From an uncultured bacterium (GTDB taxonomy: Bacteria; Bacteroidota; Ignavibacteria; Kapaibacteriales; UBA4661), in contig CALCNX010000075.1 of assembly GCA_937899715.1 (NCBI GenBank), positions 9,269-73,268 on the forward strand: DNA of 64,000 bases. Direction: 5' to 3'. Positions 33,413 to 54,229 of this stretch are shown here, piece after piece (within the stretch, counting starts at the first letter, position 1; each line of letters starts with the position of its first letter). The notes beneath the pieces were generated by a model that saw only the letters and a program-made list of their open reading frames with translations, was not told the DNA's origin and ran no database searches. The position numbers were made by a program, and so were the translations under genes.

Positions 33413-33419
33413 TGCTGCT

Positions 33420-37072: not shown

Positions 37073-37148
37073 GGAGGTAAAGAATGAATTGTAGGAAAAC
37101 ACTATTAAGTGCTGCAAAGATAGGCGGGCTGGTCTTATAAAGCTATTC

Positions 37149-37184
37149 GTACATCTACGGATTTGGCAAAAACCGTAGATGTAC
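37149..37184. repeat. Perfect 12-bp-stem hairpin (gtacatctacgg / ccgtagatgtac) with a 12-nt loop, in the divergent intergenic region between the TIG-repeat gene and the MCP gene.
   Basis: Read directly from the sequence: gtacatctacgg atttggcaaaaa ccgtagatgtac. Confidence 0.7.
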
Positions 37185-37320
37185 TGATAGCAAAAGTTAG
37201 GGCGGGGGATGATAGTAGCATTAAGGCAGAAACAACAGTGAAAGCTATGAAGGGCAGGGTTTGGTGCGAAAGTGAAGAGGGCAAAGGGGCAACGTTTATT
37301 GTGGAATTGTGCAGGTATAG
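37163..37320 (+). pseudogene. Remnant of the last ~25 codons (...[22 protein letters not shown]) of the shared transmitter module, with no upstream kinase.
   Basis: 37241-37310 translates to [24 protein letters not shown], matching the conserved kinase C-terminus. Upstream of it the translation degenerates ([11 protein letters not shown] compared with SIVKKMVEAM). Confidence 0.55.
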
Positions 37321-37567
37321 TCTCACTGTTTGCCAACGCAACCCCCAAAGCGGCATCGTTTTTCTGTGTCGTTTGGTGGAAGTTTTTTGTACATTCGTGA
37401 CGGAAGAAAAAATGCCATCGCTTCTATTTCACTACATTGGGGAGCCGACGTTATTCGTTGCTTCATGGTATTGTATGCGGAGCGTTCATGCACTGTTCGT
37501 GCGTATATTGTCCAAAACACACCACAAACGATTTTTGCCACTTTTGCCCATCTATTTGGAACACACT

Positions 37568-39337
37568 ATGAATGCCTTGATATTGTCGTTTATTCCCGAA
37601 TCACTGCGCCGCGATGCCGACGAATTTCGCCGCGCCCGCTTAATCATCTCGGTTTCGTGGACGCTCTTTTTTGCTTCCCTCGCGCTCACCATCCAATCTG
37701 TCGTGATGAACATTTCATGGATTTTCGTGATGATATGGGTTCTTGGAGCAGCATTGTCGCTGTATAATCCGTTTGTCCTCCGCAATACTGCATCTCTTCG
37801 TCTGACAGGAAATATGATTCTAGCGGTGTCCGCACTAACTATTTTATTACACTGCTATATTCTGAACGACGGCTTGCGACTTGGGCTTTCACAGTATTTT
37901 TTTGTTGCTATTCCGCTTATGGCGGCATTATTCAATGGTGCCCGACAAGCAATCGCATGGACGGCAATATCATTCGTGCTGGTGTTGATACTTTTTGCTG
38001 CAAATATGCTTGGTGTGGCGTTCCCGCCCGTTTCCTTTCCACCTGAGTTGATGATGGTGCAGCGTCTTATCGGAACAACGGCTACGCTGCTGCTGATTTC
38101 GCTCCTATCGGTGCAGTCCATTCGCGCCAAGGACAATGCACTTAATTTGGCTGCGGAAATTCGTGCTGAAGCGGAGCGTAAAGCAGAGGAAGATTATCAA
38201 AAACTAAAAGAAATGAAGGCAAGCTCCGAAGCCCGTGCAGCCGATGATCTTCGCCGCTCAGAAGAGCAAAAGCAATACTTGACTCACAGCGTCGAAATGA
38301 TTTTGCAGCACATTCACCATATAGCTGGCGGAGATTTGACCGTGCGTGTGCCTGTGGAGTCGAGCGATGATATTGGTAAACTTGCTACCACACTCAACCG
38401 AACTATCGAAACCATCGAGCAGATGCTTGTTCGTGTAGCCGAGAGCGCTGACCGTACCATGTCTGCTGTTGCTGCTATTTCCGACACCACCGAAGAGCTT
38501 GCGGTTTCGTCCAATCGGCAGTCCACACAGGCGGGTCATGTTGCCAGCGCAGTGGAGGAAATGTCTGCCACGATTGAGGACTCAACCCAGCAAACATCGC
38601 TTGCAGCGCATGAAGCCGCACTTGCCAACGAAGATGCTCTGAGCGGCAACGCCACAATGCAAACAATGATGTCGAATGTGCGCAGCATCTCTGGCGTGGT
38701 CATTTCAACCGCAGAGCGCATTGAAGCTCTTGGCAAATCAAGCGAACAAATTGGAGAGATTGTGGAAGTGATTGACGAGATTGCCGACCAGACAAATCTA
38801 CTGGCGCTCAATGCAGCCATCGAAGCTGCCCGTGCCGGTGATCAGGGGCGTGGGTTTGCGGTAGTGGCAGACGAAGTGCGCAAACTCGCCGAGCGCACAC
38901 AAAAAGCAACGAAAGAAATCTCGGCTCGAATAAAAATTATTCAGAACGACACCGCCGATGCGGTCGGTTCTATGGGCGAGGGTACACGTCTGGTCAAGGA
39001 AGGCGAACAAGCAGTGAGCCGCACAGTGGAGGCGTTTGCGGCAATTCTGCAACGCACCGAGCGTGTGTCCGATGTGATGTCGCAGTTGGCGGGTGCTGCC
39101 GAAGAGCAAGCCGCGACGAGCAATTCAATGGCGCAAAGCGTGACCGATATTACGGGTGTGATTGAAGATGCCTCGCGTAGCGTCAGCAATATCGCCGACA
39201 GCACCGCAGGACTTCAACTGCAAGCCAATGAATTACGTCAGCTCATTGGGCAATTCCGCATTCAGCGAACGGGAAGTGCTTCCAAATCTTCGCAGCCCTT
39301 GCAAGGTGTGCCTAATAATAAGCGCCTGCTTGCCTAA
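37568..39337 (+). CDS. Methyl-accepting chemotaxis protein (polytopic membrane N-terminus, HAMP domain, MCP signalling domain).
   Basis: Multi-TM N-terminus, a HAMP-like segment ([30 protein letters not shown]) and the highly conserved MCP hairpin tip [36 protein letters not shown]. The start is chosen at MNALILSF; the ORF is open from 37163 through the kinase remnant. Confidence 0.8.
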
Positions 39338-39377
39338 TTCCAGTGCTTGATTTTTATACAAAAAACCTTGAACGCCC

Positions 39378-41534
39378 ATGGCTCAGAACACTACAAAATC
39401 AGCATCACAGGATTCCTCAACGGACTATGTGAAGTTTTATCATCAGGAAATAGCGCCTATTCCGGCACACGTTCAAGAGGCGTTGGAGAGTTCACCACTC
39501 AAGCCGGGAGCATTACCACCGTTTGCGGATGCTCACCGATTACAGGAAAAAGGGTATATGAGCGTAGAAACGGGCTATACCATAGAAACAGACGGCTCGG
39601 TTCATGTAGCGGTCTTGACCACAATGCCCGGCGTAACGCCTCAAATGTGGGATTGGTGGTTTGCGTGGCACGGCTGCTCGGCGAATCGCTATAAGCTGTG
39701 GCATCCGGGGGCGCACATAGACGCGCATTGGGAAGACGGTAGGAACGACATTGCCTACATCGGGCGCAATTCGATTATTGAGGAATATATTGGCAGTGAA
39801 AAAACAAAAGGCGCTGTCCAGTTCAAGTCGCCCACAGAGTTTGGTTTCTCCCACGAAGCGGTCAAGAACCTCAACGAAGCGGTGTACATCTGCGCCAATA
39901 TCGGACACGCTTCACTGCCGTTGGACTACGGGTACTTGATACATCAGGTTAGAGCCATTGAAGGCGGTGCAGAGATGCGTTCGCGCTTTTGGCTGGGCGG
40001 CGCTTACGTTCACATCCGAAAAGAAGGTGTTATTGCTGATATGGTTTCGGATGTTGCGCGAACAATGCAATCTGCTACCGAACAATTTGCAAAAGATTTA
40101 CTGCGGCACTGCGCAGAGGAAATGAATCATCTGGCAGCATTTCTGCCCGATATATATGCAGAGATGAACCCCCAAGGCGATACGCAAAGCGATGTCCTGC
40201 GTGTGCAAGGGCGCGTAGTGGAGCGCTCGGACAACGATTTTGAGGCTGTCATCATGGGGACGCTCTTCAATAAAATCAATCCCGGCAGAAGACCGGACAC
40301 AATCGTCGAACCCAGAACAGTGCAGGATATTATTACGACGGTCAAGTACGCACGGGCGCAGGGCAAAAAAATTACGGTCTGCTCCGGCGGGCATAGCTGG
40401 TCGGCGAATCATCTCCGAGAAAACAGCATTTTGATAACAATGTCCAAGTTCAACCATTACGAAATCAATGCACGGGAGATGACCGCAAAGGCAGAACCGG
40501 CGGTGGGTGGGAGCACATTGCTTGCGGCGCTGTACAAACAGAATTTGTTCTTTCCGGCGGGGCATTGTAAGGGCGTGTGCATCGGTGGTTACTTGCTCCA
40601 AGGTGGTTACGGCTGGAACGGCAGAAAAACTGGCATGGCGTGTGAAAATGTTATCGGTATGGACATCGTCACCGCAGACGGCGAGTTTGTCCATGCAAGC
40701 GCTACGGAGAATGCTGATTTATTCTGGTCTGCGCGTGGCTCCGGTGGCGGCTTCTTTGGGGTGGTGGTGTGTTTTTATTTGAAATTATCGGTGTTGCCGA
40801 AATATCGCGGAACGATTGGACACGTTTTCTCGATGAAGCATTTGGAAGATGTCTATCGGTGGGCGTATGAGGTTGGTCCGGCGGTGCCAAATGCGGTAGA
40901 ATTTCAGATGATAATGAGCAAAAATAAGTTGAATTTTCTTGGACCCGGTATTGAGGCATTCGCTACTATTTTTGCCGATACGAAGGAGGAATTTCACGAG
41001 GCAATGCAGTTTATGAAAACAAGCCCGATAAAGAAAAAAGCTCTTATCGTAACGCCAGCGCTCAACCCCAGCATCAATTTTATGTATCAATCCGTAATGA
41101 CGCATTATCCGGAGAATCGCCATTGGGGAGTAGATAATATGTGGACACACGCGCCCATTGATGATTTGATACTGTTTATGAAAGAAATTGCTGCCACGCT
41201 GCCGCCACCGCCTTCGCACGTGTTGTGGCTGAATTGGTATCCCAACATGGCCCGGCAGGATATGGTCTATTCCAACGAGGACAATATCTATTTGGCGCTG
41301 TACAGCACCTGGAAATCTGCTGCGGAAACCGCTAGGTACGGGGACTGGGCAATGAGCATGATGAAAAAAATGTCGCATCTTGCCACTGGAATTCAACTGG
41401 CAGATGAAGGTTTACACAAACGGGCAGCACCATTTTTATCCGATGAGAATATGAAAAAATTGCAAACAATACGGACACAACGCGACCCAAATGGGCTGTT
41501 CCACGAATGGCACAGCAAGCCTGAAATGGCGTAA
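39378..41534 (+). CDS. Two-domain oxidoreductase: an N-terminal domain of about 250 aa of unknown function fused to an FAD-binding (PCMH-type, FAD-linked oxidase) domain.
   Basis: FAD_binding_4-like motifs (ITVCSGGHSWSANHL...; GVCIGGYLLQGGYGWNGRKTGMACENVIGMDIVTADGEFV; FWSARGSGGGFFGVVVCFYLK). Confidence 0.75.
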   Translation: MAQNTTKSASQDSSTDYVKFYHQEIAPIPAHVQEALESSPLKPGALPPFADAHRLQEKGYMSVETGYTIETDGSVHVAVLTTMPGVTPQMWDWWFAWHGCSANRYKLWHPGAHIDAHWEDGRNDIAYIGRNSIIEEYIGSEKTKGAVQFKSPTEFGFSHEAVKNLNEAVYICANIGHASLPLDYGYLIHQVRAIEGGAEMRSRFWLGGAYVHIRKEGVIADMVSDVARTMQSATEQFAKDLLRHCAEEMNHLAAFLPDIYAEMNPQGDTQSDVLRVQGRVVERSDNDFEAVIMGTLFNKINPGRRPDTIVEPRTVQDIITTVKYARAQGKKITVCSGGHSWSANHLRENSILITMSKFNHYEINAREMTAKAEPAVGGSTLLAALYKQNLFFPAGHCKGVCIGGYLLQGGYGWNGRKTGMACENVIGMDIVTADGEFVHASATENADLFWSARGSGGGFFGVVVCFYLKLSVLPKYRGTIGHVFSMKHLEDVYRWAYEVGPAVPNAVEFQMIMSKNKLNFLGPGIEAFATIFADTKEEFHEAMQFMKTSPIKKKALIVTPALNPSINFMYQSVMTHYPENRHWGVDNMWTHAPIDDLILFMKEIAATLPPPPSHVLWLNWYPNMARQDMVYSNEDNIYLALYSTWKSAAETARYGDWAMSMMKKMSHLATGIQLADEGLHKRAAPFLSDENMKKLQTIRTQRDPNGLFHEWHSKPEMA

Positions 41535-41595
41535 TGTTGTTGCGAAGGGTAGAGTGTAGCAAGTCATAATAACTGAAAAAGTACGCTTTTGCTAA

Positions 41596-41732
41596 CAATT
41601 CCCCTCTTTGGAACAAAGAGGGGTGTACGAGCGGTAGCGAGGACGAGGTGTTGCTTCGTGCATTGCTAACGAACTACCCCGTCAGCCTGCTTCGCTCCGG
41701 CTGACACCCCTTCACATCGTGAAGGGGAATTT
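41596..41732. repeat. Pair of related strong hairpins in inverted orientation that flank about 75 bp. The position fits a terminator for the FAD-oxidase gene or a leader for the next kinase gene.
   Basis: The first hairpin is cccctctttg-gaa-caaagagggg (41601-41623). The second is ccccttcac-atc-gtgaagggg (41707-41727). Both share the flanks acacccc...ggggaatt in opposite orientation. Confidence 0.65.
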
Positions 41733-41784
41733 TAGAAAGCGGAACTTCAGTTAATTCAGCGCAAATATCTTTCTTCTTCACGCT

Positions 41785-43971
41785 ATGAAATGGTTGTACA
41801 CGTTGTTGATAGGGGCTGTTGTTCTGCTCCCTTCTTCTGTTGTCTTTGCTCAATCGCCCACTGCTTTTGCTGAGCGCGATAGCATTCGTGCTTCGGTGGA
41901 TTCTGTCTTGTCCCTGCGCCCGGCGGGAGATGTACAGACCGTTACTGCCTTGACGCGCCTTGCATGGATTGAATTTGGAGTGCATCCTGAAACATCGCTT
42001 GAGTACGCGCGGCGGGCTGTTCAGATGGCGGAAAAAATGGCATTACAACGAGAATTGGCAAATGCCCTCACGAGCGCAGCCGCTAACTATCGTCTCTCCG
42101 ACGGCTATGACAGTGCTTTGGCGGCAAGCAAAAGGGCATGGAAAATCTATTCCACACTTGCCGATACTGCCGCAAGTGCTGATGCGCTGGACAACATCGG
42201 CGGCACGTACCAAAGTCGTGGTGAGTACGCGCGGGCGCTTGATTACTACTTTCAGGCATTGGCTCTCTACGAAGCCTCGCGTAATGAACAAGGTATTGCG
42301 CGTGTGCTGGCAAATATTGGCGTGGCATATACGCTTGTCGGGCAGTTCAGCACTGCGCACAATTATCACGACCGGGCGCTCGCTATCCGCGAGAGGCTGC
42401 ATGAACAGCACAATAGCGATGCGCTTGCCTATTCGCTTTATTTTCTGGGCAATCTCTATCAAGCCGAACATCAATTTACTGAGGCAATACGCCTGTACAC
42501 CCGTGCCTTGAGTATTTTCGACAAATTTCACAACCAGCACGGAACTGCTCTCACGCTTGGTGAACTTGGACGGGTGCAGATGATTACTGAGCGTTACGGT
42601 GAGGCACAAACAACCCTGCTGAATGCTTTTTTGCGCTTTCAAGACATCGGAGATAAACGCAGCGCCGCTCGTGCTCTCAATGCTCTGGCTACTGCCGATA
42701 ATTACACTCGCAATCACCATGAAGCGATTGACAATGCCACACAAGCGCTGGAGATTGCCCAAGCAATCGGTGCGCTGCGCGAGGAGCGCGATGCGGCGGA
42801 AGTGCTTGCCAATGCGCACGAGGCATTGCATGAGACGGACGCAGCCCTTCGGTGGTATCGCCGTTTTATGCGATTAAATGATTCGCTCTTCAGCAATGAC
42901 GGTACGCAGCGCATAGCGGCATTGCAGCTTCAGTACGCCACTGAGCAGAAAAATATGGAAATACGCCACATCGAAGAGCAGAAGCGCACGGACGAGGCGC
43001 ACGCCCGCACGACGCGCAACGGCTTGCTGCTGGGTATTGGCGGGTTACTCGTGGCGCTTATTGCGATTGTGAATCGGTATCGTCTCAAACGCCGCTCAGA
43101 GAAAGGGCTTCGGCAAATAAACGCTCATATCATGCGGCAGCAGGAGAAGCTGGAAGCACAGGCGCACGAAATATTTCACACCAACGCCGAACTTTCGGCA
43201 GCGAATGAACGTTTGGCATTGCAGAATCTCGACCTCATTGCACTCAACGAGCAAAAAAATGAATTTCTGGGAATCGCTGCGCACGACCTTCGCAACCCGC
43301 TTGCAAACATTATGACCGTCGGGTCGTTGCTACGGGAAGATTTGGCAAACTATGAAGCCGAACTGCCGCCAGAGACCGTACCACTACCGCCGTCCGCCGT
43401 GTGGGGCACACGCACAATAGAAACCTCTGCCGCCAAAATGCTGCATCTGGTGGAAAATCTGCTGGATGTGAATGCGTTGGAACGTGGCGCTATCAATCTT
43501 ACACTTGAGTCGGTGGATATTGCGCAGCTTGCCGAAGCCTCGCTAGAGCGCTTTCGCCATGCAGCTCAGGCAAAGTCCATCACATTGCAACGAGAGATAA
43601 TGCCTCATGGAAAGAAAGAAGCATTGGCACTCGCTGATAGGGGATACGCCGAACAAGTGCTGGAGAATCTTGTATCGAATGCGATAAAGTATTCGCCGCA
43701 TGGGAAGGGCGTTATGGTGCGCGTCAATGCAGATAATGGTATTGTTCGCGTGGAGGTGCAGGACGAGGGACCGGGCTTAAGCGAGAGCGACAAAGCGCGT
43801 CTCTTCGGTACATTTGCTCGTCTCTCTGCGCTGCCGACTGGCGGCGAACAGAGTACGGGATTGGGACTGAGCATCGTGAAAAAATTAGTGGAATCCATGA
43901 AGGGGCGCGTGTGGTGCGAATCGGAGTTGGGCAAGGGAGCAACGTTTATTGTGGAGCTGCCACAAGCATAG
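41785..43971 (+). CDS. TPR-repeat sensor histidine kinase (signal peptide, TPR repeats, TM helix, shared transmitter module).
   Basis: Signal peptide MKWLYTLLIGAVVLLPSSVVFAQ, TPR-like repeats (ALDYYFQALALYE; AIRLYTRALSIFD), a TM helix (LLLGIGGLLVALIAIV), the H-box EFLGIAAHDLRNPL and the C-terminus [52 protein letters not shown]. Confidence 0.85.
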   Translation: MKWLYTLLIGAVVLLPSSVVFAQSPTAFAERDSIRASVDSVLSLRPAGDVQTVTALTRLAWIEFGVHPETSLEYARRAVQMAEKMALQRELANALTSAAANYRLSDGYDSALAASKRAWKIYSTLADTAASADALDNIGGTYQSRGEYARALDYYFQALALYEASRNEQGIARVLANIGVAYTLVGQFSTAHNYHDRALAIRERLHEQHNSDALAYSLYFLGNLYQAEHQFTEAIRLYTRALSIFDKFHNQHGTALTLGELGRVQMITERYGEAQTTLLNAFLRFQDIGDKRSAARALNALATADNYTRNHHEAIDNATQALEIAQAIGALREERDAAEVLANAHEALHETDAALRWYRRFMRLNDSLFSNDGTQRIAALQLQYATEQKNMEIRHIEEQKRTDEAHARTTRNGLLLGIGGLLVALIAIVNRYRLKRRSEKGLRQINAHIMRQQEKLEAQAHEIFHTNAELSAANERLALQNLDLIALNEQKNEFLGIAAHDLRNPLANIMTVGSLLREDLANYEAELPPETVPLPPSAVWGTRTIETSAAKMLHLVENLLDVNALERGAINLTLESVDIAQLAEASLERFRHAAQAKSITLQREIMPHGKKEALALADRGYAEQVLENLVSNAIKYSPHGKGVMVRVNADNGIVRVEVQDEGPGLSESDKARLFGTFARLSALPTGGEQSTGLGLSIVKKLVESMKGRVWCESELGKGATFIVELPQA

Positions 43972-44082
43972 ACGGTGCAAATGTAAAAAAGTGAAAATAT
44001 TCGTTGGCAAAAGGGAATCCTTGTACGATATTGCGGCATAAATCATTGTTTGTGCAACCGTATTAAACCTATTAACAAGCCA

Positions 44083-44319
44083 ATGACACTCAGAGAATTT
44101 CTTATTACGCTTGCAACCGACGCAAATCAGCTGGCTGCTTTCAAGGCGAACAAAGATAAGTCCATGCAGGATGCGGGACTGACCCCTGAAGAACAGGCAT
44201 TAGTGAAGGGGCATGATGAAGACCTCATACGGAAGTATATCCAAGAGCAAGAACCAGATGCTCCTCAAGCATTTCCTTTTATGGCTAACGGTGCTGCAAA
44301 ACCGCCGGAGCAGAGATAA
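44083..44319 (+). CDS. Candidate split-borosin precursor peptide (SonA-like): an N-terminal helical borosin-binding domain and a C-terminal putative core (...EPDAPQAFPFMANGAAKPPEQR). The ORF-track start is 44050.
   Basis: MTLREFLITLATDANQLAAFKANKDKSMQDAGLTPEEQALVKGHDEDLIRKYI resembles the Shewanella SonA N-terminal domain (DFFTQLGQDAQLMEDYKQNPEAVMRAHGLTDEQINAVMTGDMEKLKTL) as I recall it. The shared pattern is F..L..DA.L....K.N....M...GLT.EQ..AV..GD.E.L. The gene ends 6 nt before the methyltransferase ORF. Confidence 0.55.
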   Translation: MTLREFLITLATDANQLAAFKANKDKSMQDAGLTPEEQALVKGHDEDLIRKYIQEQEPDAPQAFPFMANGAAKPPEQR

Positions 44320-44324
44320 CTGTT

Positions 44325-45116
44325 ATGACTGATGAACGTTTGGTTGTGATTGGTACGGGTATTCGGCTTGTGGGGCAGTTAACCGTGGAAAGTACTGCAT
44401 GGATTAAGTGTGGCGAGCGCATTTTTCATATTGCCGACGACCCGCTTATTGTTGCCCTCTTGTCCAACATTAATCCTTCGGCAGAATTGTCAGCGCTTAC
44501 TCATCTTTATGGTGAGAATAAATCCCGTGCGGAGACCTACGAAGCAATGGTGCAAACAATTATGGAAAGCGTTCGCAAGCCCGGATTGACGGTCTGTACG
44601 TTCTATGGTCATCCGGGCGTGATGGCGTACCCGGGGCATGAAGCTATCCGTCGCTCCCGACTGGAGGGCTTCAAAGCCCGAATGTTGCCTGCGGTGTCAG
44701 CAGAGGACTGTCTTTTTGCTGATTTGGGATTGGATCATGCCATGACAGGCTACCAAACCTACGAGGCTACTGATTTTCTCTGGAACGACCGTCGTTTAGA
44801 CCTCTCAAGCCATCTTGTGCTCTGGCAGATAGGTGCTGTGGGTGATTTGACCTTTCACGAAGGAGAATACAATTTGTCGGCATTGCCTCTTCTTGTGGAA
44901 AAATTGCTTCGGTGGTACCCGCCTTCTCATGAAGTAACGGTGTATGAAGCGGCTGTGATGATAGATTGTGAGCCGCATATCCGCAAAGTCCCTCTTGGAG
45001 AGCTTCGAGCAAATGTCGTATCGGCTCGTTCTACACTTTCAGTACCTCCGGCAGCAGCCGTGAAAGCTGACCGTAGTATGTATGAGCGCTATAAGGCATT
45101 ATCTCACGGAGGGTAA
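44325..45116 (+). CDS. Borosin-type peptide alpha-N-methyltransferase of the OphMA/SonM family, which has a tetrapyrrole-methylase-like fold.
   Basis: The translation ([34 protein letters not shown]...[76 protein letters not shown]...[28 protein letters not shown]) aligns without gaps to the Omphalotus OphMA methyltransferase domain recalled from memory (TIVGTGIESIGQMTLQALSYIEAAAKVFYCVIDP...[76 protein letters not shown]...YEASDFLIRDRPVSIHSHLVLFQVGCVG). Confidence 0.75.
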   Translation: [263 protein letters not shown]

Positions 45117-45252
45117 AGAAATTACTTTTCGCCCAACTATGTGAGTCTTCCTGTTCTAAAAAAGGTAGGACACTATAACAAAATCTTCTTTGCTATGCAC
45201 TTTGAGGGAGAGAGTCTTCCTCAGCATTTCCAATAAGAATTAAAGCGTTTGT

Positions 45253-47616
45253 ATGTTTTCTTCACAACGCTCTCCTTATACTACCTTCGCATTCTTTATC
45301 CTCTCCGGTTTGTTGTTGGTATTCTCATCACTGCCTTCTTTTGCTCATCTATTTTTCCCGTCCGATTCACGAGATTCTTCTGCCAATAGTATTATCACTC
45401 ATGATTCTCTTGGTGTTATAGAATTTGGTATTGACGGGAAGCCCTCCACACGCCATGTTACTGCTAAAACACAATACTGGATAGACACTGCGCAAACCAT
45501 GACGATTCAGCGCCTGATGCAATCGTCCAGCAATACACGAAGTTTTCATAAAGCTGCTACATCCTCAATACTTTTGGGAAACGGGCATCGTGTAGTATGG
45601 ATACAATTCGTAGTGCAGAGACTTCCTATGCAGGATGAATTGAAGCGACTCGCCGACAGTATCGGGAGTGATAGTATTAAAAATCAGGGTATCAGAGATA
45701 GTAGTGTGAGTGCTATAAATGTAGCTCAAGCAAGACTTGGCGAGGCTCTTCGCCCGTGGGTTCTACTCTTGGAGAATAGGTCTGCCGATAGTGTAGAGTT
45801 CTATATGACTCGTGGGGATTCAATTCTTTATTCAGATACAGTCGGCTATTCCGTGGCATATTCTCGTTGGCATATACCTGCAATGAAGATAGCTTTTCCG
45901 CTTCCTGTGGGTACTGGCGAGAGAATTGTATGCTACGTGCGTATGCGCATGAATGGAGTAATGTATTACGGAGTTTCTTTACAGCCCGAAAGGCAGTTTG
46001 CCGAAAGAACGTTCAACTTTAAGTTGCCACTTTTTTTATTTTATGGTGTTACGCTTTTCGCCGCTATCTTTAGTCTGCTCTCGTGGATTCTCACGCGCAG
46101 CAGATATTATGGGCTGTACGCATTTTATATCGTGTGTCTGGCGTTGAGCATCAGCATTGATGCAGGACATTTTTATCAGGTCTTCGAGGTTTCCATGCCT
46201 CATCTGAACAATCGGCTTTACATTCTCTCGTGGCTGGCAAGTATGGCAATGGGGGTGTTTTTCGTATGGGAATTTGTGCGGGAGCAGCATAGTATCGCCA
46301 TACCAAAGATATGGGAGTGGCTGGCATACTTGTTTTGGGCGTGTTGTCTGGTGGCATTGGTCGCCGAATTTGTTGATATGCGAGGGGTCACGCTCAACGT
46401 TCTGTACTATTCATATTTAGCGCTGGCAGTGCCGACCACACTTGGCATGAGTTTTTCCGCATGGCGTGCCGGCTACCGTCCGGCGCTGTATGTGTTCGTG
46501 GCACGGGCAATCGTTGAGTTTGGGATTGCCGCAAATTCGCTTGCTGCACTGGGTGTGCTGTCCTATTCTTCCATTTGGATAAGCCAAATTTCACTTCTTG
46601 TTCCGGCAGTAGAAATGATGCTCATGGGGCTGGCGCTGGCAGACCGCATCACCGTTCTTCAGCGTCTAAAGCAAGAAGCGGAGCGCAGAGCACTTCAGGG
46701 CGAACTCTACCGCGTCCAAAATGAAGAGCTTTCGGCTGCGAATGAAGAAATCAGCCGCCAGCAAAGCGAAATCATGCAGCAAGCAATGGAACTACAAGAG
46801 ATGAACACACAGGTAACGCTGCTTAATGATGAATTGCAACAACAGAACGCTGAACTTGCCGAGGCGAACCGCGAAAAAAGCGAGATTCTGAACATTGTGG
46901 CGCACGACCTGAAAAACCCCATCGGCAGTGTGCGCGGCATGGCAGAGTTGATTGAAACAGGGTTCATCGGCGATACGGAAAAAACGGCAAGCGCAGCAAA
47001 GCAGATTATCGGCACATCCGAACGGATGCTGGATTTGGTAAAGAAGCTCCTCGACATCAATATGCTGGAATCCGGCGCTTTTCAGATGGATTTTTATGCG
47101 TTCGATATTATTCCCCTTCTGGATATGCTGGTGGAACAGTACACCGCTCCTGCTGCCGCAAAGCAGATTGCGATTCGCTGTGAATATCAGATTTCTCGCG
47201 GTATCATTCTTGCCAATGAGCAAGCCGTTATGCAGATTCTGGACAATATCGTTTCTAATGCAGTGAAATACTCGCCACACGGGAAAAACATAGTTGTAAG
47301 GATAAAGGCTGCGGGCGAAACGGTGGAAGATGTAACAGAGAATGTTGTCCCTTCTCCTTCGTCATTTGTGCGCATCGAAGTACAGGACGAGGGACCCGGA
47401 CTGAGCGAAGACGATAAAGCCAAGCTCTTCGGCAAATTTGTACGCCTTTCCGCGCAGCCTACGGGCGGCGAACATTCTACAGGGCTGGGACTTAGCATCG
47501 TCAAAAGAATGGTCGAGGCGATGAAAGGAGAGGTGTGGTGCGAATCTGAGCGAGGAGAAGGGGCAACGTTTATTGTACAATTACCAATTTCTGTGTCGGA
47601 AGCGTCATCTTCGTGA
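45253..47616 (+). CDS. Sensor histidine kinase of the 7TMR-DISM type (extracellular 7TMR-DISMED2-like domain plus 7 TM helices) with the shared transmitter module.
   Basis: Signal peptide, an extracellular domain of about 230 aa, seven hydrophobic helices (LPLFLFYGVTLFAAIFSLLSWIL ... ISLLVPAVEMMLMGLALA), a coiled coil, the H-box EILNIVAHDLKNPI and the C-terminus GKFVRLSAQPTGGEHSTGLGLSIVKRMVEAMKGEVWCESERGEGATFIVQLP. Confidence 0.85.
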   Translation: MFSSQRSPYTTFAFFILSGLLLVFSSLPSFAHLFFPSDSRDSSANSIITHDSLGVIEFGIDGKPSTRHVTAKTQYWIDTAQTMTIQRLMQSSSNTRSFHKAATSSILLGNGHRVVWIQFVVQRLPMQDELKRLADSIGSDSIKNQGIRDSSVSAINVAQARLGEALRPWVLLLENRSADSVEFYMTRGDSILYSDTVGYSVAYSRWHIPAMKIAFPLPVGTGERIVCYVRMRMNGVMYYGVSLQPERQFAERTFNFKLPLFLFYGVTLFAAIFSLLSWILTRSRYYGLYAFYIVCLALSISIDAGHFYQVFEVSMPHLNNRLYILSWLASMAMGVFFVWEFVREQHSIAIPKIWEWLAYLFWACCLVALVAEFVDMRGVTLNVLYYSYLALAVPTTLGMSFSAWRAGYRPALYVFVARAIVEFGIAANSLAALGVLSYSSIWISQISLLVPAVEMMLMGLALADRITVLQRLKQEAERRALQGELYRVQNEELSAANEEISRQQSEIMQQAMELQEMNTQVTLLNDELQQQNAELAEANREKSEILNIVAHDLKNPIGSVRGMAELIETGFIGDTEKTASAAKQIIGTSERMLDLVKKLLDINMLESGAFQMDFYAFDIIPLLDMLVEQYTAPAAAKQIAIRCEYQISRGIILANEQAVMQILDNIVSNAVKYSPHGKNIVVRIKAAGETVEDVTENVVPSPSSFVRIEVQDEGPGLSEDDKAKLFGKFVRLSAQPTGGEHSTGLGLSIVKRMVEAMKGEVWCESERGEGATFIVQLPISVSEASSS

Positions 47617-47652
47617 AATATCGTTAGGGCTTGGCGGCGTTCATCGAAGGGT

Positions 47653-47720
47653 GGAGTGCGGAATTTATTCCGCAACAAAATAAGATAGAATCTTGGTAGG
47701 CGGAATAAATTCCGCACTCC
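47653..47720. repeat. Hairpin repeat (ggagtgcggaatttattccgc ... gcggaataaattccgcactcc) of the same family as the middle inverted repeat of 4455..4777. It sits 37 nt downstream of a kinase stop codon, the same offset as the other copy.
   Basis: Read directly from the sequence. The shared upstream motif gttagggctt lies at 47624-47633 (compare 4456-4465). Confidence 0.8.
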
Positions 47721-47857
47721 CAATCTGTTTTTTTGCAAAAACCGTTGCTTTGTTTCAATGTCGACCCGATGTGTTTCTTAGAGATTCAATGTAACTTTTT
47801 CTTGCTGGCGTTGTTCTCTGTCCTTTCATGTTTTTTTTGCACTATTCACACCACACT

Positions 47858-48871
47858 ATGGAACGACGAGATGTATTAAAGGGGCTGGGAACGCTTGGAC
47901 TTGGGGCAGTTCTTGGCGCAACAACGAATGAGGAAGCCTCTGCCGCCACACCACCGCCAATGGCAGGCTGCGTTCTGATTCCTCAAGAGACCGAAGGACC
48001 ATATCCGCTCGACCTGAGTCGTAATGCCGCGATGTTCCGTCAGAACATCACCGAGGGAAAAACCGGGCTTCCGCTCAATCTCAGGCTTACGATTCAAAAT
48101 GTAAGCAATAATTGTGCTCCCATTGCGAATGCCCGTGTGGACATCTGGCAATGCGACAAAGACGGCGTATATTCCGGCTATAACCAACCGGGCGCAAACA
48201 CCGTCGGGCAGACGTTTATGCGCGGTATCCAGATGACTGACAGCGCGGGACAGGTGAACTTTGTGACGGTGTATCCGGGCTGGTATAGCGGTCGTATCAC
48301 CCACATTCATTTCCAAGTGTTCGTTACATCAGTTCTTCGCGCCACATCGCAGATTGCTTTTCCCGATGCTATCAATAATGCTGTCTATCAAACGCCGCTC
48401 TATGTGGCAAAAGGGCAAAACCGTTCGGTGGCGAATAATGCTGCCGATATGGTCTTTAGCGATGGTTTCGAGTCACAGTTGGCAATGCTGACGGCGAACA
48501 CAACCACAGGTGGTTATGATGCGGCGCTGACGGTCGGTATTCAAGCCCCAACAACGGGGGTTATGGATTTGGAGCCGGAAACGGGCGGACAGTTCCTGTT
48601 GCAACAAAACTATCCGAATCCTTTTAGCACCACAACGACCTTTGTTTTTCAGCTGATGCAAGCAGCAAGCGTTGAATTTTCGCTCTACGACCTCACGGGC
48701 AGAAAACTTGCTACGCTTGTGGATAAGACGCTTTCGAGCGGTGAACATCGCATTGAATGGGACAAAACTATCGGCGGAATGGCGCTTGCTTCCGGCAATT
48801 ATGTCTTTGAACTTGTGACCAAAAGCGCTGCCGGGCAATTCCGTCAAGCAAAAGTCTTGACCGTTCGATAA
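47858..48871 (+). CDS. Intradiol ring-cleavage dioxygenase-like protein with a twin-arginine (Tat) signal peptide and a T9SS C-terminal sorting domain.
   Basis: Tat motif MERRDVLKGLGTLGLGAVLGA. Dioxygenase_C-like core (ARVDIWQCDKDGVYSGY...TDSAGQVNFVTVYPGWYSGRITHIHFQVF). C-terminus ...LQQNYPNPFSTTTTFVFQL...SGNYVFELVTKSAAGQFRQAKVLTVR, which fits the T9SS CTD pattern. Confidence 0.75.
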   Translation: MERRDVLKGLGTLGLGAVLGATTNEEASAATPPPMAGCVLIPQETEGPYPLDLSRNAAMFRQNITEGKTGLPLNLRLTIQNVSNNCAPIANARVDIWQCDKDGVYSGYNQPGANTVGQTFMRGIQMTDSAGQVNFVTVYPGWYSGRITHIHFQVFVTSVLRATSQIAFPDAINNAVYQTPLYVAKGQNRSVANNAADMVFSDGFESQLAMLTANTTTGGYDAALTVGIQAPTTGVMDLEPETGGQFLLQQNYPNPFSTTTTFVFQLMQAASVEFSLYDLTGRKLATLVDKTLSSGEHRIEWDKTIGGMALASGNYVFELVTKSAAGQFRQAKVLTVR

Positions 48872-48955
48872 AATATCATTCCTGAGAAGAAAAAAAGAAA
48901 AGCCCGCAAGAACGTTAGTTTCTTGCGGGCTTTTGCTGTTGGTCTGTGCTACGCT

Positions 48956-50392
48956 TTAGAGCGACCCAAGGAAAGCTAAGAGCGCATCGCGGTCAGCTTT
49001 GGGCAAGCGGCGAACGTAATCGCGTGATTGCTGTGACTCGCCGCCGTGCCAAAGAATTGCTTCCATCACATTGCGAGCGCGTCCGTCGTGCAGCAAGAAG
49101 GTGTGTTTATTCACTGTTGCTGTCAGACCAAGTCCCCAAAGCGGTGTGGTGCGCCATTCGCGTCCGTTTGCTAGGAAGTCAGGGCGGTTGTCGGCAAGAC
49201 CTTCGCCCATGTCATGCACAAGCATATCGGTATAGGGGAAAATATTTTGGTTCGAGACCTCCGGTACGCCTTGCAGTGTACCTGTCCGCATAGAGGGCGT
49301 ATGGCAAGCGTTACATTTTGCGGCATCAAAGACCACTTTGCCGCGTTGAACGGCGGGGTCGGTGATGTTTCGGCGAGCCGGAACGCCGAGTGTGCGAGTG
49401 TAGTGCAAAACAGCATCCAGTGTCTCGTCGCTGACCTCAGGTGCGTGTGCCGGAATCGCCTGAACTTGTCCGGCAGAACTTTCGTTCGGGAAGAGCGATG
49501 AGGTTACGCCCATGTCGCCATTGAAGGCAGCCGCATTTTGTTGAGCGAGCGAAGGCTGATTTGCTTTCCAACCAAAGCGCCCAAGAGCGACTTTTTGCGA
49601 CTTCACATCCCAGACGTAGTTTGCTTTGCCGGAAATTCCGTCGTTGTTGCGGTCGTTCGGGTCGGCGGCAGCAAGGATTGTTTGTTCGTCAATGGCTTCC
49701 AAAAGACCCAAGCCAAAGACAGGCGAAGCAATGCGCGGCGAAACCTGTACTCCGCCCGGAAGCGGGATATAGGTGTTTTGAATGTTGTAGCGCGGAGAAC
49801 GAAGCGAATAAGCGGTTCCGTCAGTAAAGGAACCGGGAACCTCAGTATAAGCGATGGTAAATTTACCCTCCGGTCGTACGCCTGCTACTGCTTGGTCTTG
49901 GAGCTGTCCGCCAAAGCCCGCTACAGGATTAAGTTCGCCGTGTTCGTTTGCTCCCATAGTGCTAAGGCGCAAGAGCAAAGCGTTCATTTCTCCATTTGCC
50001 ATTTCCGGTTTTCCACGTCCATCGCCTACATGGCAGCTTTCGCAAGCTACATTATGGAAAATCGGACCCAAGCCGCCCGGATGTCCGGCAGACGCGCGTG
50101 CTGCAAACTCGGCTGCAAATGCCTCATCACCTGCATCATGTTTTGCCAGACTTGCACCCATGACGTTTGGTGCTGCTTGCCCGAAGGCTGTTTCATCGGT
50201 CAAAAAAACGGTTGTTGCTCCGCCCGAAAGACGTTCATCCGCGCCGCGTGGTTGTTGGCGAGGAGGAGCCGCAGGGTCGTCAACGGCGGTTTGGACAGGG
50301 GTGATGTCTTCTGTATTGGAGCACCCAGTCATTCCAAGTGCTGCCAGACCGGTGATTGCGCAAAGAAATGCTGCGCTTACAAATGCTCTCAT
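48956..50392 (-). CDS. DUF1111-family di-heme c-type lipoprotein (putative thiol oxidoreductase or peroxidase).
   Basis: Lipoprotein signal (MRAFVSAAFLCAITGLAALGMTGCS), two CxxCH haem-binding motifs (ACESCHVGDG; AKCNACHTP), and the GRFGWKANQPSL and LWHGGE motifs typical of DUF1111. The start is taken at the internal Met; the ORF is open to 50500. Confidence 0.8.
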   Translation of the reverse strand: MRAFVSAAFLCAITGLAALGMTGCSNTEDITPVQTAVDDPAAPPRQQPRGADERLSGGATTVFLTDETAFGQAAPNVMGASLAKHDAGDEAFAAEFAARASAGHPGGLGPIFHNVACESCHVGDGRGKPEMANGEMNALLLRLSTMGANEHGELNPVAGFGGQLQDQAVAGVRPEGKFTIAYTEVPGSFTDGTAYSLRSPRYNIQNTYIPLPGGVQVSPRIASPVFGLGLLEAIDEQTILAAADPNDRNNDGISGKANYVWDVKSQKVALGRFGWKANQPSLAQQNAAAFNGDMGVTSSLFPNESSAGQVQAIPAHAPEVSDETLDAVLHYTRTLGVPARRNITDPAVQRGKVVFDAAKCNACHTPSMRTGTLQGVPEVSNQNIFPYTDMLVHDMGEGLADNRPDFLANGREWRTTPLWGLGLTATVNKHTFLLHDGRARNVMEAILWHGGESQQSRDYVRRLPKADRDALLAFLGSL

Positions 50393-50660
50393 AACGATTC
50401 TCCAAAAAATGGTAGATAAAAAAACTTTTTGTGTTGTTGCTGTTGATGGTGGTGTTTTTCCTGTGGCGTTTCCCCGCAGGTAACTGATACAAAAATGCAC
50501 AATCGGTACTCGTCAAACATCTAGCCGATGGTCAGTATCTTCTATGCCCAAAAGTCATGGTCAAAAATTTGTCAGTACACAGAATCAAATAGAACTTTTT
50601 TCGTATTCCTCCGTACACGGGGAAGAACGGCTCAACTTCCATCACCGTCGTCTTCCCGCT

Positions 50661-53600
50661 ATGTGCTTTCTCTACATCTTGCCCTGCACGAAGACAATCA
50701 CCTACCGAAGCGCAATTTTCGGTATAGCTTCCCTGTACCTTCTATGCTCTTTTCAAGCCGTTCCCGCTTCTGCCCGTCATCAGAATACCACTACAAAAGC
50801 CGCCTCGCAACGGCATCTCGCACGGCATCCCGTTTCCGCCTCGTCACGCCCCGAATTGTGGTTTGAACATCTTAGCCTTGCCGAAGGTCTTTCTCAAAGC
50901 AGCGTTTATGCGATATTGCAGGACAAGCACGGCTTCCTGTGGATTGGCACGGAAGATGGTTTGAATCGCTACGATGGTTATCGCTTCACGCATTACCGTC
51001 ACGACCCAACGAATCCGCGCTCGTTGTCGGCAAATCTTGTGCGGGTCTTGTATGAAGACCGCGACGGTACATTATGGGTTGGGACGGAAAATGGTGGTCT
51101 GAATGCCTACGACCGCAAAACAGAAAGTTTCACTCGCTACCAATCTGCTTTCAACGATGATAGAAATGCCCCTCGGAAAACTGATGCCGAGAGCGAAGGG
51201 CTGGGCAGTAATTTCCTGCGAGGCATTTGTGAAGACGCGGAGGGAACGCTGTGGATAGCCACTACAAACGGGCTGAACACATTTAATAAGCGTACCGGCA
51301 AATGGGGACGAATGTGCTATAGTCCGAACAATCCTGCGGGTGCAGGAAGTCTGAGCCACAACCACCTAAACTCGCTGTTGCTTGACCGCGATGGTATGAT
51401 ATGGGTGGGAACATGGGGCAAAGGAGTAAATCGAATTAATCCCAAGACAGGAGCAATTACACGCTTTGACAATAAATCACAGACCAACGCACTCATCAAT
51501 GATTTTATCACTGCGCTTTTTCAAGACAGTGATGGTGATATCTGGGTAGGTACTGCCGATGGTGTCAGTCTTTTGAATCTTGCATCGGGAAAGAGTACTC
51601 ATTTTGCCAACAGCCCTGAAAAACCGAGTGTTTTAGGCGGGAATATGATTCGTTCTTTTTGGCAAGACGGAGGCGGAACATTCTGGATTGCTTCCGAGCA
51701 AGGCGGTGTAACGCTTTTGGACAAAAAGACGGGACATACGGAAAATTATCGTCACGAACCGACCAATGCAGCGAGCCTGAGCAATGATAATATTCGGTGC
51801 ATTTTTCGTGATAAGCAAGGTGCACTCTGGCTTGGCGCAATGGGTGGCGGGCTTAATAAATTTGACCCTTTCGCACGGAAGTTTGTATCCTATCGCCAAG
51901 AAACCAACAACCCATTCAGCCTCAACAATAACGTTGTTCGGGCAATTCTGGAAGATGAGTGCGGCACGGTGTGGGTGGGAACGGAAGGCGGCGGACTAAG
52001 CAAATTCGACCCTTTCACGAAGAAATTTACAGCATACCGCCATCAGCCCGGCAATGAGCGGAGCATCAGTCACGATATTGTGCGCGGCATTGTGAATGAT
52101 AAAAAACGGGGCGTTCTCTGGGTAGCAACAGCCGGTGGCGGGCTGAATCGTTTCGACCCTAAACGTGGTACATTTACAGCGTATCGAGCGAACTCGAACA
52201 AAGCGTATTCAATTTCCAGTGACGTTGTCCGACCGCTCTTGCTCAATGATGATGGCACACTCTGGGTTGGGACTGAGGGCGGGCTGAATCACTTCGACCC
52301 CGCAAACGAGCGCTTTACAGCATACCATTCTGACCCCAATAATGACCGTAGCCTCAGCTTTGAGTCGGTCTTGACGCTGTACAAAGACCGTTCGGGAACG
52401 CTGTGGGTGGGGACGTTACAGGGGTTGAATAAGTTCGATCCCGCAAGTGGCACATTTACGCAGTTTACGCACAACATGAACGATGCACACGCCCTCCAAA
52501 GTGGTAATATCCGCTCCATGATTGAGGACAACAAAGGGCGCTTCTGGGTGGGAACGTGGGGTGGGGGCTTACATCTTTTTGACCGCACAACGGGTCGTTG
52601 TGAAGGTTTTCGGGAAAAGGATGGACTGCCAAACGATGCGGTGTATGGGATTTTGCAAGATAGCGCAGGCAACCTTTGGCTCACAACCAATAATGGTCTT
52701 GCCCGCTTTAATCCTGATGAGCGGACGTTCCGTACCTACGATGCCGATGATGGTTTGCAAAGTAATGAGTTCAATAGTGGAGCATATCATGCGGGCGAAA
52801 GTGGGCGCTTCTATGTGGGCGGTGTGAACGGACTGAGTATGTTTACGCCGGAGCGTATCGCCGACAATACCACGCCGCCTCCGGTAGTAATAACGGGGTT
52901 CAAAAAATTCAACAAACCCGTGCAGCTTTGGCAAGACCTCACTGCTGAGCCTGAAATTGCGATTCCTTACGATGACAATTTCTTTACTATTGAGTTCGCT
53001 GCACTCAATTTTACCAGTGCTAGAAAAAATCACTATCTCTACAAATTAGATGGCTTCGACAAACGCTGGATAGATGCAGGAACAAGCCGTGAAGCTGCTT
53101 ATACGAACCTTGACCCTGGAGTATATACATTTCGCATAAAAGCCTGCAACAATGACGGTCACTGGAACGAGCGCGGCGCACGATTGCACATCAGAATTTT
53201 GCCGCCGTGGTGGATGACAATTTGGTTTCGGGCGGGTATCGTATTGGGGTTTGTCGGCACAGGCGGAGCGTGGTTCTGGGCACGGTGGCGACGTGTGCAT
53301 TATCAAAAGCGAGAACTGGAAAGGCTTGTGGGAGAACGTACCGAGCAGTTGCAGGAAAGTAACATTGAGCTGTCGCAAGCAAATGAGGAAATTCAACAGC
53401 ATATCCAAACCGTAAGCGAGCAGGCGTGGGAAATTGCGACGATGAACACGCAATTAAACGCCCGCAATCAAGAATTGGAGCGGCTGAACACCGAAAAGAA
53501 CGAGTTTTTGGGTATCGCCGCGCACGACCTCAAAAATCCACTTACGAGTATCGTTTTGCTTGCCGAAATGATTCAGTTTCAGAACGAAACATTAGACAAC

Positions 53601-54191
53601 TCACAACTGATGGAGAAGGTGTCCAAAATTGAGCTAACCGCTATGCGGATGCGCGATATTATTGCCGATGTGCTGGATGTGAATGCCTTAGAATCGGGCG
53701 CACTCACACTGTATCCGGCGGAATTTGATGCGGTTTTTCTGGCAAAGGATATTCTGGAAGAATACCAAGACCGTGCCGCTGAGAAAGGCATTACACTTCA
53801 CTTAGAAGCCCCCCAAGACCGTGAAGTGCTCCTCTATGCAGACTTCACGAAAACACATGAAGTGCTGGAAAATATCGTCTCTAATGCCGTGAAATACTCG
53901 CCGCATGGAAAAAATGTTACTGTGAGGATACATGATGATTTGAGTACATCATTTGTGAAAATTGAAGTGCAGGATGAAGGTCCCGGCATTTCGGATGAGG
54001 ATATGAAGCGGCTTTTTGGTAAATTCGTTCGTCTTTCGGCACAGCCCACAGGCGGCGAGCATTCGACGGGTTTGGGGTTAAGCATCGTCAAAAAAATGGT
54101 CGAAGCGATGCAGGGGCACGTGTGGTGTGAGTCGGAGCTTGGTGCGGGCGCATCGTTCTTCGTGGAATTGCCGAAAGCAGAACAAGCATAA
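50661..54191 (+). CDS. Sensor histidine kinase (signal peptide, about 14 propeller repeats, Y_Y_Y, TM, coiled coil, shared transmitter module). The ORF is open from 50544.
   Basis: Propeller repeats (LWIGTEDGLNRYDG; LWVGTENGGLNAYD ...), a Y_Y_Y motif (FTIEFAALNFTSARKNHYLYKLDGFDKRWIDAGTSREAAYTNLDPGVYTFRIKACNNDGHWNE), a TM helix, the H-box EFLGIAAHDLKNPL and the C-terminus GKFVRLSAQPTGGEHSTGLGLSIVKKMVEAMQGHVWCESELGAGASFFVELP. Confidence 0.85.
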   Translation: MCFLYILPCTKTITYRSAIFGIASLYLLCSFQAVPASARHQNTTTKAASQRHLARHPVSASSRPELWFEHLSLAEGLSQSSVYAILQDKHGFLWIGTEDGLNRYDGYRFTHYRHDPTNPRSLSANLVRVLYEDRDGTLWVGTENGGLNAYDRKTESFTRYQSAFNDDRNAPRKTDAESEGLGSNFLRGICEDAEGTLWIATTNGLNTFNKRTGKWGRMCYSPNNPAGAGSLSHNHLNSLLLDRDGMIWVGTWGKGVNRINPKTGAITRFDNKSQTNALINDFITALFQDSDGDIWVGTADGVSLLNLASGKSTHFANSPEKPSVLGGNMIRSFWQDGGGTFWIASEQGGVTLLDKKTGHTENYRHEPTNAASLSNDNIRCIFRDKQGALWLGAMGGGLNKFDPFARKFVSYRQETNNPFSLNNNVVRAILEDECGTVWVGTEGGGLSKFDPFTKKFTAYRHQPGNERSISHDIVRGIVNDKKRGVLWVATAGGGLNRFDPKRGTFTAYRANSNKAYSISSDVVRPLLLNDDGTLWVGTEGGLNHFDPANERFTAYHSDPNNDRSLSFESVLTLYKDRSGTLWVGTLQGLNKFDPASGTFTQFTHNMNDAHALQSGNIRSMIEDNKGRFWVGTWGGGLHLFDRTTGRCEGFREKDGLPNDAVYGILQDSAGNLWLTTNNGLARFNPDERTFRTYDADDGLQSNEFNSGAYHAGESGRFYVGGVNGLSMFTPERIADNTTPPPVVITGFKKFNKPVQLWQDLTAEPEIAIPYDDNFFTIEFAALNFTSARKNHYLYKLDGFDKRWIDAGTSREAAYTNLDPGVYTFRIKACNNDGHWNERGARLHIRILPPWWMTIWFRAGIVLGFVGTGGAWFWARWRRVHYQKRELERLVGERTEQLQESNIELSQANEEIQQHIQTVSEQAWEIATMNTQLNARNQELERLNTEKNEFLGIAAHDLKNPLTSIVLLAEMIQFQNETLDNSQLMEKVSKIELTAMRMRDIIADVLDVNALESGALTLYPAEFDAVFLAKDILEEYQDRAAEKGITLHLEAPQDREVLLYADFTKTHEVLENIVSNAVKYSPHGKNVTVRIHDDLSTSFVKIEVQDEGPGISDEDMKRLFGKFVRLSAQPTGGEHSTGLGLSIVKKMVEAMQGHVWCESELGAGASFFVELPKAEQA

Positions 54192-54229
54192 TGCTTCCTT
54201 GATGACAAGGAGAAAAGCACGATGAATGT

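Follow-up and report, generated by a model that had tools for sequence, protein, structure and literature searches.

Which product does the pair of open reading frames (ORFs) at 44083..45116 make, and why does a sensor histidine kinase gene directly follow it? The pair lies in a 64,000-nt stretch of an Ignavibacteria (UBA4661) assembly (GCA_937899715.1, contig CALCNX010000075.1, positions 9,269-73,268), hereafter the window, and positions are those of the window throughout unless a related locus is named. An earlier note on this DNA had read the pair as a two-gene borosin cassette, that is, a precursor and an alpha-N-methyltransferase for a peptide that is made on the ribosome and modified after translation (RiPP), set among signalling genes. 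Based on the findings in this work, the ORF pair is very probably a Type IV ('split') borosin RiPP pair, which forms one inherited unit with the sensor of the downstream 7TMR-DISM kinase. Homology, fold, catalytic residues, adjacency, purifying selection and a conserved leader followed by a variable core support this assignment.

A SonM-like methyltransferase

Both ORFs are on the forward strand where the earlier note had placed them, and the motifs and the tail APQAFPFMANGAAKPPEQR that it quoted all occur in the translations. The first, the precursor gene, occupies 44083..44319 (78 amino acids plus stop; ATG at 44083, stop at 44317-44319), and the second, encoding a stand-alone SonM-like methyltransferase of 263 amino acids, occupies 44325..45116. 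They are indeed adjacent on the same strand, but the spacer counts 5 nt (44320-44324) and not the 6 nt that had been claimed. An alternative TTG start at 44050 would give an 89-residue precursor; however, the ATG start is preferred because all precursor orthologues begin MTLREFL or MSLREFL, and the codons further upstream are unconserved.

Homology places the 263-residue protein among the borosin-type alpha-N-methyltransferases. It shares 41% identity with SonM over 243 residues with a single 1-residue gap, in keeping with the near-gapless alignment to the borosin methyltransferase domain described before, and all 25 of its PDB matches at E<=1 are borosin alpha-N-methyltransferases (SonM, 1.5e-55; dbOphM, 1.9e-51; OphMA, ~2e-48; MroMA, 4e-40). 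No CobA/CysG-type methylase appears among the PDB matches at that threshold, and the assignment to borosin enzymes rather than to classical methylases, as had been proposed, was thereby upheld. The residues that position substrate and cofactor in SonM, namely Y58, R67, Y71 and Y93 (Miller et al., PMC8429565), correspond to Y62, R68, Y72 and Y94 in a 122-sequence alignment, and each of them is invariant or nearly so. An apparent replacement of SonM Y58 by Thr in the pairwise alignment was rejected as an artefact, as SonM carries a 3-residue insertion after Y58 which misplaces that residue unless the 122 sequences are aligned together. Additionally, both borosin motifs, YGHP(GV) and the DCLFAD type, which underlie the antiSMASH BorosinMT rule (bioRxiv 10.1101/2021.12.24.474128), are present and nearly invariant across the 122 homologues. 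General family models place the protein at the superfamily level only (Pfam TP_methylase, E 4e-12), and the NCBIfam model YabN scores 43 bits against a cutoff of 525. The gene evolves under purifying selection, with a ratio of nonsynonymous to synonymous divergence (dN/dS) of 0.03-0.07 against orthologues, and more than 4,000 relatives of its product occur in the protein collection searched. About 2,700 borosin methyltransferases have been catalogued, with thousands more in metagenomes.

A SonA-like precursor with a borosin-binding domain

Comparison of both proteins with OphMA, SonM and SonA, which the earlier note had proposed, gave strong matches for the enzyme, and for the precursor gave matches to SonA that became significant with a profile or a structure. 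Searched as a single sequence with phmmer, the precursor had only a chance match in the PDB, to a DARPin, whereas a profile built from the precursor and four orthologues matched SonA (E 0.006-0.07, residues 3-49 to SonA 4-50) and, weakly, the clasp region 326-371 of OphMA; a local hidden Markov model (HMM) of the borosin-binding domain (BBD), including paralogous precursors, scored SonA at 33.5 bits. In the AlphaFold2 model (mean pLDDT 81.5; 85-91 over the BBD), residues 1-56 (44083..44250, forward strand) form five helices (3-12, 14-22, 24-30, 35-43 and 46-56), and a low-confidence tail follows. When this model was searched with Foldseek against 350,542 PDB chains, the top 30 matches were all SonA chains, the best superposing at a root-mean-square deviation of 1.0 A over 51 columns (TM-score 0.90 normalised to the target, probability 1.00); the E-values were modest (0.07), as expected for a 50-residue domain. 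The resemblance of the helical N-terminus to the SonA BBD, which the earlier note had suggested, is therefore borne out by profile and HMM matches as well as by superposition of the folds.

After the 30 SonA chains, rank 31 in the Foldseek search was LigA of LigAB, and the Pfam LigA model also matched the precursor below threshold (E 0.0013, 19.3 bits against a cutoff of 25.3). LigA-type folds are documented structural relatives of the SonA BBD (PMC8429565), and because of this relationship the sub-threshold match is informative. No LigB catalytic subunit is encoded among the neighbours. The small ORF is a real gene under purifying selection: dN/dS against orthologues is 0.02-0.13 at a synonymous divergence (dS) of 0.35-2.0, and for the BBD alone 0.02-0.04 at dS 0.7-2.0.

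Residues 57-78, EPDAPQAFPFMANGAAKPPEQR (44251..44316, forward strand), constitute the linker and putative core, which has low pLDDT and no stable structure in the model. Two related loci, L004 (8571..10795) and L005 (8425..10795), carry two tandem precursor-methyltransferase pairs, A1-M1 and A2-M2, with A2-M2 between A1-M1 and the kinase gene; the A2-M2 enzyme is 72% identical to that of the first pair, its precursor has the core TFLVA[IV]NSS, and the pair is not in the window, whose own pair is the A1-M1 orthologue. Among A1 orthologues, F64-P65-F66, A68-N69-G70 and K73 of the tail are invariant. Between the precursor lineages of the local clade, in contrast, the BBDs are 52-80% identical and the tails only 0-29%, examples of the latter being FPF[MV]ANG, TFLVA[IV]NSS, DPPPMVVVQSS and LDTKMFPPTNKL. 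A conserved leader joined to a variable core is the classical RiPP pattern.

Proposed action of the pair

We propose that the pair would act as follows, with methylation, its sites, cleavage and export all predicted. First, residues ~1-56 of the precursor would fold into the five-helix BBD, which would dock on the S-adenosylmethionine (SAM)-dependent 263-residue alpha-N-methyltransferase, expected to form a homodimer as SonM does. The C-terminal tail, being flexible, could then thread into the SAM and active site, where one or a few backbone amides in A63-A68 (not P65) would be methylated in the N-to-C direction. By analogy with SonA L63/I65 (PMC8429565), A63, F64, F66, M67 and A68 are the candidate sites, while P65 cannot be methylated. 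Finally, a protease encoded elsewhere might release a short linear peptide, by analogy with shewanellamide A.

Several points weigh against this proposal. Typical Type IV cores (...VIVFI, ...LILILII) are more aliphatic than the tail QAFPFMANGAAKPPEQR. In an ungapped alignment SonA L63 falls on A63 and SonA I65 on P65, whereas in an alignment by hydrophobic pattern the L63 position falls on P65 and the I65 position on M67; because the methylated I65 of SonA aligns to an unmethylatable proline, the register and the sites are uncertain. Neither a protease nor an exporter or other transporter is encoded in the 64-kb window. Moreover, one Shewanella system releases a peptide without methylation, its methylated stretch forming part of the leader (bioRxiv 10.1101/2024.01.09.574750), and therefore the tail may not be the final product, which is unpredictable.

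Comparison with known borosins

The closest characterized system is SonM/SonA of Shewanella oneidensis (Type IV; PDB 7LTC; PMC8429565, PMC10549244), in which, as here, a stand-alone methyltransferase (the present one 263 residues, 41% identical, with the same key residues) and a precursor of ~75 residues, built of an N-terminal five-helix BBD and a C-terminal tail, are encoded by adjacent genes, without a protease in the cluster and with a membrane signalling protein as neighbour. The two systems differ in that here the precursor precedes the enzyme and the side-clamp loop is shorter by 3 residues; FPFMANG takes the place of YLVISHG as the core, with a Pro aligned to a SonA methylation site; a 7TMR-DISM histidine kinase is encoded next door instead of a GGDEF protein and an efflux pump; and the host belongs to Ignavibacteria rather than Gammaproteobacteria. 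The fungal Type I enzymes OphMA and dbOphMA share the homologous methyltransferase domain (E ~1e-48 to 1e-51), and their clasp (326-371) is weakly homologous to the BBD, but in them enzyme, clasp and core are one polypeptide acting on itself within a dimer, whereas here separate genes encode them. The Type 0 and Type VI borosins of Bacteroidota (SkoAM, FpeAM and SliA/M; bioRxiv 10.1101/2024.01.09.574750, 10.1101/2021.12.24.474128) likewise combine a BBD with a borosin methyltransferase in hosts of the Fibrobacteres-Chlorobi-Bacteroidetes (FCB) group; however, in those the BBD, core and enzyme are fused, or the precursors are long and repetitive and receive 10-40 methylations, unlike the short single-core precursor of the window.

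Against this background, what the earlier note had regarded as unusual is mostly not so. Borosins of the FCB group have been experimentally validated in Spirosoma, Flavihumibacter and Segetibacter (bioRxiv 10.1101/2021.12.24.474128; 10.1101/2024.01.09.574750), which contradicts the claim that such a host is exceptional. The pair does lack a protease or transporter nearby, but this is not unusual because the Shewanella son cluster contains no protease either (PMC10549244). It does also lie between signalling genes, as had been said, yet GGDEF signalling proteins occur in 56% of split-borosin clusters (bioRxiv 10.1101/2021.12.24.474128; 10.1101/2024.01.09.574750), and here only the downstream kinase is specifically linked to the pair. 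The borosin pair itself is thus genuine but ordinary, one more member of a known and widespread kind.

The arrangement recurs in the related loci that were fetched (~90, numbered with the prefix L): a BBD-containing ORF lies directly upstream of, or is fused to, the methyltransferase in 56 places in ~54 of them (domain E<=0.01), 67 BBD-matching ORFs are found at E<=1, and a separate short precursor ORF stands beside the methyltransferase in ~50 related loci. Full-length matches to the precursor are rare, with 2 representatives at E<=1e-10 in a set of 1.84 billion proteins, and matches to the BBD only, with short aliphatic C-termini, are common.

A sensor kinase linked to the pair

Directly downstream on the same strand lies the gene of a 7TMR-DISM sensor histidine kinase (45253..47616; 787 residues; Pfam 7TMR-DISMED2, 7TMR-DISM_7TM, HisKA and HATPase_c). 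Its residues 1-271 (45253..46065), which comprise the signal anchor and all of the extracellular DISMED2 sensor and reach to the first helix of the seven-transmembrane (7TM) domain, are hypervariable. A scan found no terminator between the methyltransferase and kinase genes.

Such a kinase follows directly on the same strand in all six lineages examined, at 56-94% methyltransferase identity, and in every relative at or above 56%. Relative to the window enzyme, identities are 94-98% in the lineage of the window, L001, L002 and L011; 71-73% for the kinase-adjacent M2 of L004 and L005, whose first-pair M1 is 89-93% identical; 68% in L091-94; 64% in L007/8; 58% in L097; and 56% in L095/96. The L007 enzyme is nearer M2 than M1. 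The downstream kinases are orthologous over their full length (44-84% identity); in L007 the adjacency is kept in entirely different surroundings, and in L095/96 the methyltransferase and kinase genes overlap by 4 nt. None of 80 more distant metagenome homologues (<=55% identity) has a histidine kinase neighbour in a search with an HMM built from three close paralogues, which could miss distant kinases; the linkage is therefore clade-specific. The TPR-HisKA-HATPase sensor kinase gene on the upstream side (41785..43971, forward strand; Pfam) is context only, as it lies outside the variable island described below and is absent at that place in L007.

A divergence island that ends within the kinase gene

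The main pairwise comparison was between the window and L004 (GCA_044227435.1), and it delimits a divergence island at 43972..46065 that contains the promoter, precursor, methyltransferase and kinase sensor, with A2-M2 as an extra in L004 and L005. For 5.5 kb upstream of the island the DNA is 100% identical; a DAPG-hydrolase/FAD gene shows no difference, and the TPR kinase gene shows four, all synonymous (dS 0.008). From the stop codon of the TPR kinase on, identity drops from 100% to 76-90%; the A1 precursor has diverged to dS 1.0 and M1 to dS 0.75, both with dN/dS 0.07-0.15, and 45095-45756 is unalignable to L004, which holds A2-M2 there. Within the kinase, residues 1-271 are ~40% identical at the amino acid level, whereas from residue 272, which lies inside the first 7TM helix (transmembrane-like segment 256-281), there are 4 differences in 516 residues. 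DNA identity is back at 98-100% for 46250-48000 and is 93-100% beyond. These breakpoints imply that the island consists of the promoter, the precursor, the methyltransferase and exactly the extracellular sensor. A simple deletion of A2-M2 as the cause of the difference was rejected because the 5' end of the kinase gene is replaced as well.

The left edge is the intergenic region upstream of the precursor (43972..44082, forward strand), where identity to L004 falls. It holds a sigma-70-like site (TTGGCA at 44004, a 17-nt spacer, and GATATT ending at 44032), promoter-like in form, though the scan that found it performs at chance level (3 sites against 2.2 expected). Of this region, 77 nt align to L004 at 88% identity and 50 nt to L091 at 86%. 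The composition profile contains no GC anomaly and hence no compositional sign of recent foreign origin, and the closest genome record is an Ignavibacteria metagenome-assembled genome with a methyltransferase identity of 94%.

Against L001 the pattern is reversed, with the cassette at dS 0.35-0.76 and the flanks at dS 1.0 and 2.1. Across ten loci, sensor distance follows that of the adjacent methyltransferase (r=0.96; partial Mantel r=0.93 with the kinase body held constant, permutation p ~5e-5), and no residual correlation with the methyltransferase remains for the kinase body (partial r=-0.15). Within a cassette type the sensor evolves at dN/dS 0.2, not above 1, so that dN/dS gives no sign of positive selection within one type. 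With so many kinase paralogues, gene conversion between them could skew the kinase-body phylogeny. In L005, at 12000..13200, the 3' half of the 7TMR-DISM kinase gene is 86-94% identical to L001, L011 and L091, and the neighbouring DHOR gene 73-85%, which suggests that kinase bodies are homogenised by recombination or gene conversion.

Other short dips in identity to L004 (68-84% amid 95-100%) occur at ~37250-37500, ~49250-49500 and ~50750-51000, the last of which falls in the N-terminal part of a Y_Y_Y kinase (50544..54191).

What the kinase linkage may mean

Taken together, a kinase-coupled swappable module appears to be what is new at this locus, as judged from the genes, whereas the borosin pair and its signalling neighbours are of an already known kind. 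The discoverers of the Shewanella system state that the native role of bacterial borosins is unknown (PMC10549244). No publication linking borosins to histidine kinases, Ignavibacteria or quorum sensing was found in the searchable library, and HATPase, histidine kinase and Ignavibacteria all go unmentioned in the Imani preprint's supplement and in the Lee preprint. With the kinase always adjoining and the exchanged block ending at the extracellular boundary, what borosins are for becomes a concrete and testable question.

One explanation, for which we see somewhat less than an even chance, is that the linkage is regulatory or accidental: the kinase may control the pair, or the pair may hitch-hike by a fast-evolving extracellular domain, perhaps under phage or surface selection, within a large kinase array. 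It is favoured by the ~20 sensor kinase genes on one strand of the window, by the fact that extracellular sensor domains are usually the fastest to evolve, and by the general enrichment of borosin clusters in signalling genes of unknown meaning (bioRxiv 10.1101/2021.12.24.474128). However, the adjacency persists outside the kinase array, in L007, and overlapping genes occur; the island, moreover, has its left edge at the precursor promoter and is not confined to the kinase gene.

A further explanation, possible but doubtful, extends the split-borosin assignment rather than replacing it, namely that the borosin peptide, once processed, signals outside the cell and has the DISMED2 domain of the adjacent 7TMR-DISM kinase as its sensor, and that precursor, methyltransferase and sensor constitute an exchangeable, pherotype-like cassette in Ignavibacteria in the style of comQXP or agrBDC. 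The presence of the kinase downstream in all six lineages, including the other surroundings of L007 and the 4-nt overlap of L095/96, argues for it, as do the extent of the island relative to L004, running exactly from the promoter to kinase residue 271, by the edge of the first transmembrane helix, and the sensor's tracking of the methyltransferase (r=0.96, partial 0.93), which the kinase body does not share (partial -0.15). In the staphylococcal agrBDCA locus, precursor, enzyme and kinase genes have the same side-by-side layout, and polymorphism extends as one block over precursor, enzyme and kinase sensor but leaves the cytoplasmic part of the kinase conserved. In comQXPA of Bacillus subtilis, too, genes for a precursor peptide, a modifying enzyme and a membrane histidine kinase stand side by side, and the polymorphic block spans precursor, enzyme and kinase sensor while the cytoplasmic part of the kinase is conserved (PMC4008528). 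Nevertheless, there is no sequence relationship between these systems and the present one; the modification is backbone N-methylation (predicted) here and prenylation or thiolactone formation there, no response regulator is adjacent here, and signalling here is putative.

Other points count against a peptide signal. Physical linkage alone would make the 5' end of the kinase gene, which encodes the sensor, co-inherited with the neighbouring gene, and the argument rests on about ten loci and one sharp pairwise contrast. An exporter and a protease (in the 64-kb window) and an adjacent response regulator are all absent, and the low dN/dS of the sensor within a cassette type (0.2, not above 1) does not favour it. 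Although the A2 cores of L004 and L005 are nearly the same, identity between their sensors is only 47% over kinase residues 1-168 and 55% over 36-255. DISMED2 domains, moreover, are generally thought to bind carbohydrates or small molecules. If the signal explanation were true, a bacterial borosin would have a native function assigned for the first time, a Gram-negative FCB lineage would have a peptide pheromone system with an N-methylated backbone, and backbone N-methylation would join prenylation and thiolactone formation as a route to peptide pheromones.

Least probable by far, and already contradicted, is a reading in which the 263-residue protein belongs to the classical tetrapyrrole or YabN-type methylases and the small ORF is spurious or encodes a LigA-like dioxygenase subunit. 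In its favour, Pfam yields only TP_methylase and a weak LigA and homologues are named 'YabN' by JGI, but the YabN score is far below its cutoff, the PDB matches include no classical methylase, no LigB partner and no cobalamin or siroheme genes are among the neighbours, and the small ORF is under strong purifying selection with SonA as its best structural matches.

Neighbouring genes in the window

The stretch 1..59013 carries on its forward strand ~20 genes for sensor histidine kinases, all oriented alike; their sensors vary (Reg_prop/Y_Y_Y, TPR, GAF, PAS and 7TMR-DISM), but their catalytic ends are very similar (GGEHSTGLGLSIVKxMVEAMxGxVWCESE...). None of these ~20 genes encodes a receiver domain, and the kinases may feed a shared regulator. 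No locus has a response regulator adjacent to the borosin-linked kinase; the nearest is a LytTR-type regulator (Response_reg plus LytTR; 62670..63593, reverse strand), ~15 kb downstream of that kinase. The LytTR class serves many peptide quorum-sensing systems.

Upstream, at 39378..41534 on the forward strand, a 718-residue fusion of a DAPG-hydrolase (PhlG) and an FAD_binding_4 oxidase domain is encoded, which is the gene with 100% DNA identity to L004; it is not conserved beside the borosin pair in L005 or L007. Downstream, at 47828..48871 on the forward strand, lies a gene whose product resembles intradiol dioxygenases and has a Tat-like N-terminus and a type IX secretion sorting tail; the gene is missing at the corresponding position in L001 and L011.

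Related loci with other precursor forms

Examples from soil metagenomes mostly carry long repeat cores after the BBD, whereas the precursor of the window is short with a single core (Type IV). Long repeat cores were seen in L012, L018-L022, L033/34, L058, L060/67/85 and L069-L082, with repeats such as TPQITPMV, QVFPQVTPLQIAP, PPNFVV/PPQFVV, NCIWAAQPQA and PPHIG(L/M)(T/P)P. 'Type 0' fusions of BBD and methyltransferase occur in L046, L063, L070, L075-77, L080 and L083/84.

In L007 (9756..9998) and also in L008, the precursor gene has a single in-frame TAG at codon 53, inside helix 5 of the BBD; read past the TAG in frame, the sequence AVKSLLPDSDSQFIVVIALSSEKGEK leads up to the next stop and contains a hydrophobic core like those of SonA and A2. 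Two metagenome samples contain this interrupted gene in identical form; it is a nonsense pseudogene or else is read through. In L009 (9453..9986) and L010 (1766..2299), a 177-residue protein encoded directly upstream of a borosin methyltransferase starts with a BBD, has a Trp/Pro-rich middle and ends in a BON domain, and the neighbours of this gene are phage-tail-like (contractile injection system) genes and a gene for a NACHT protein.

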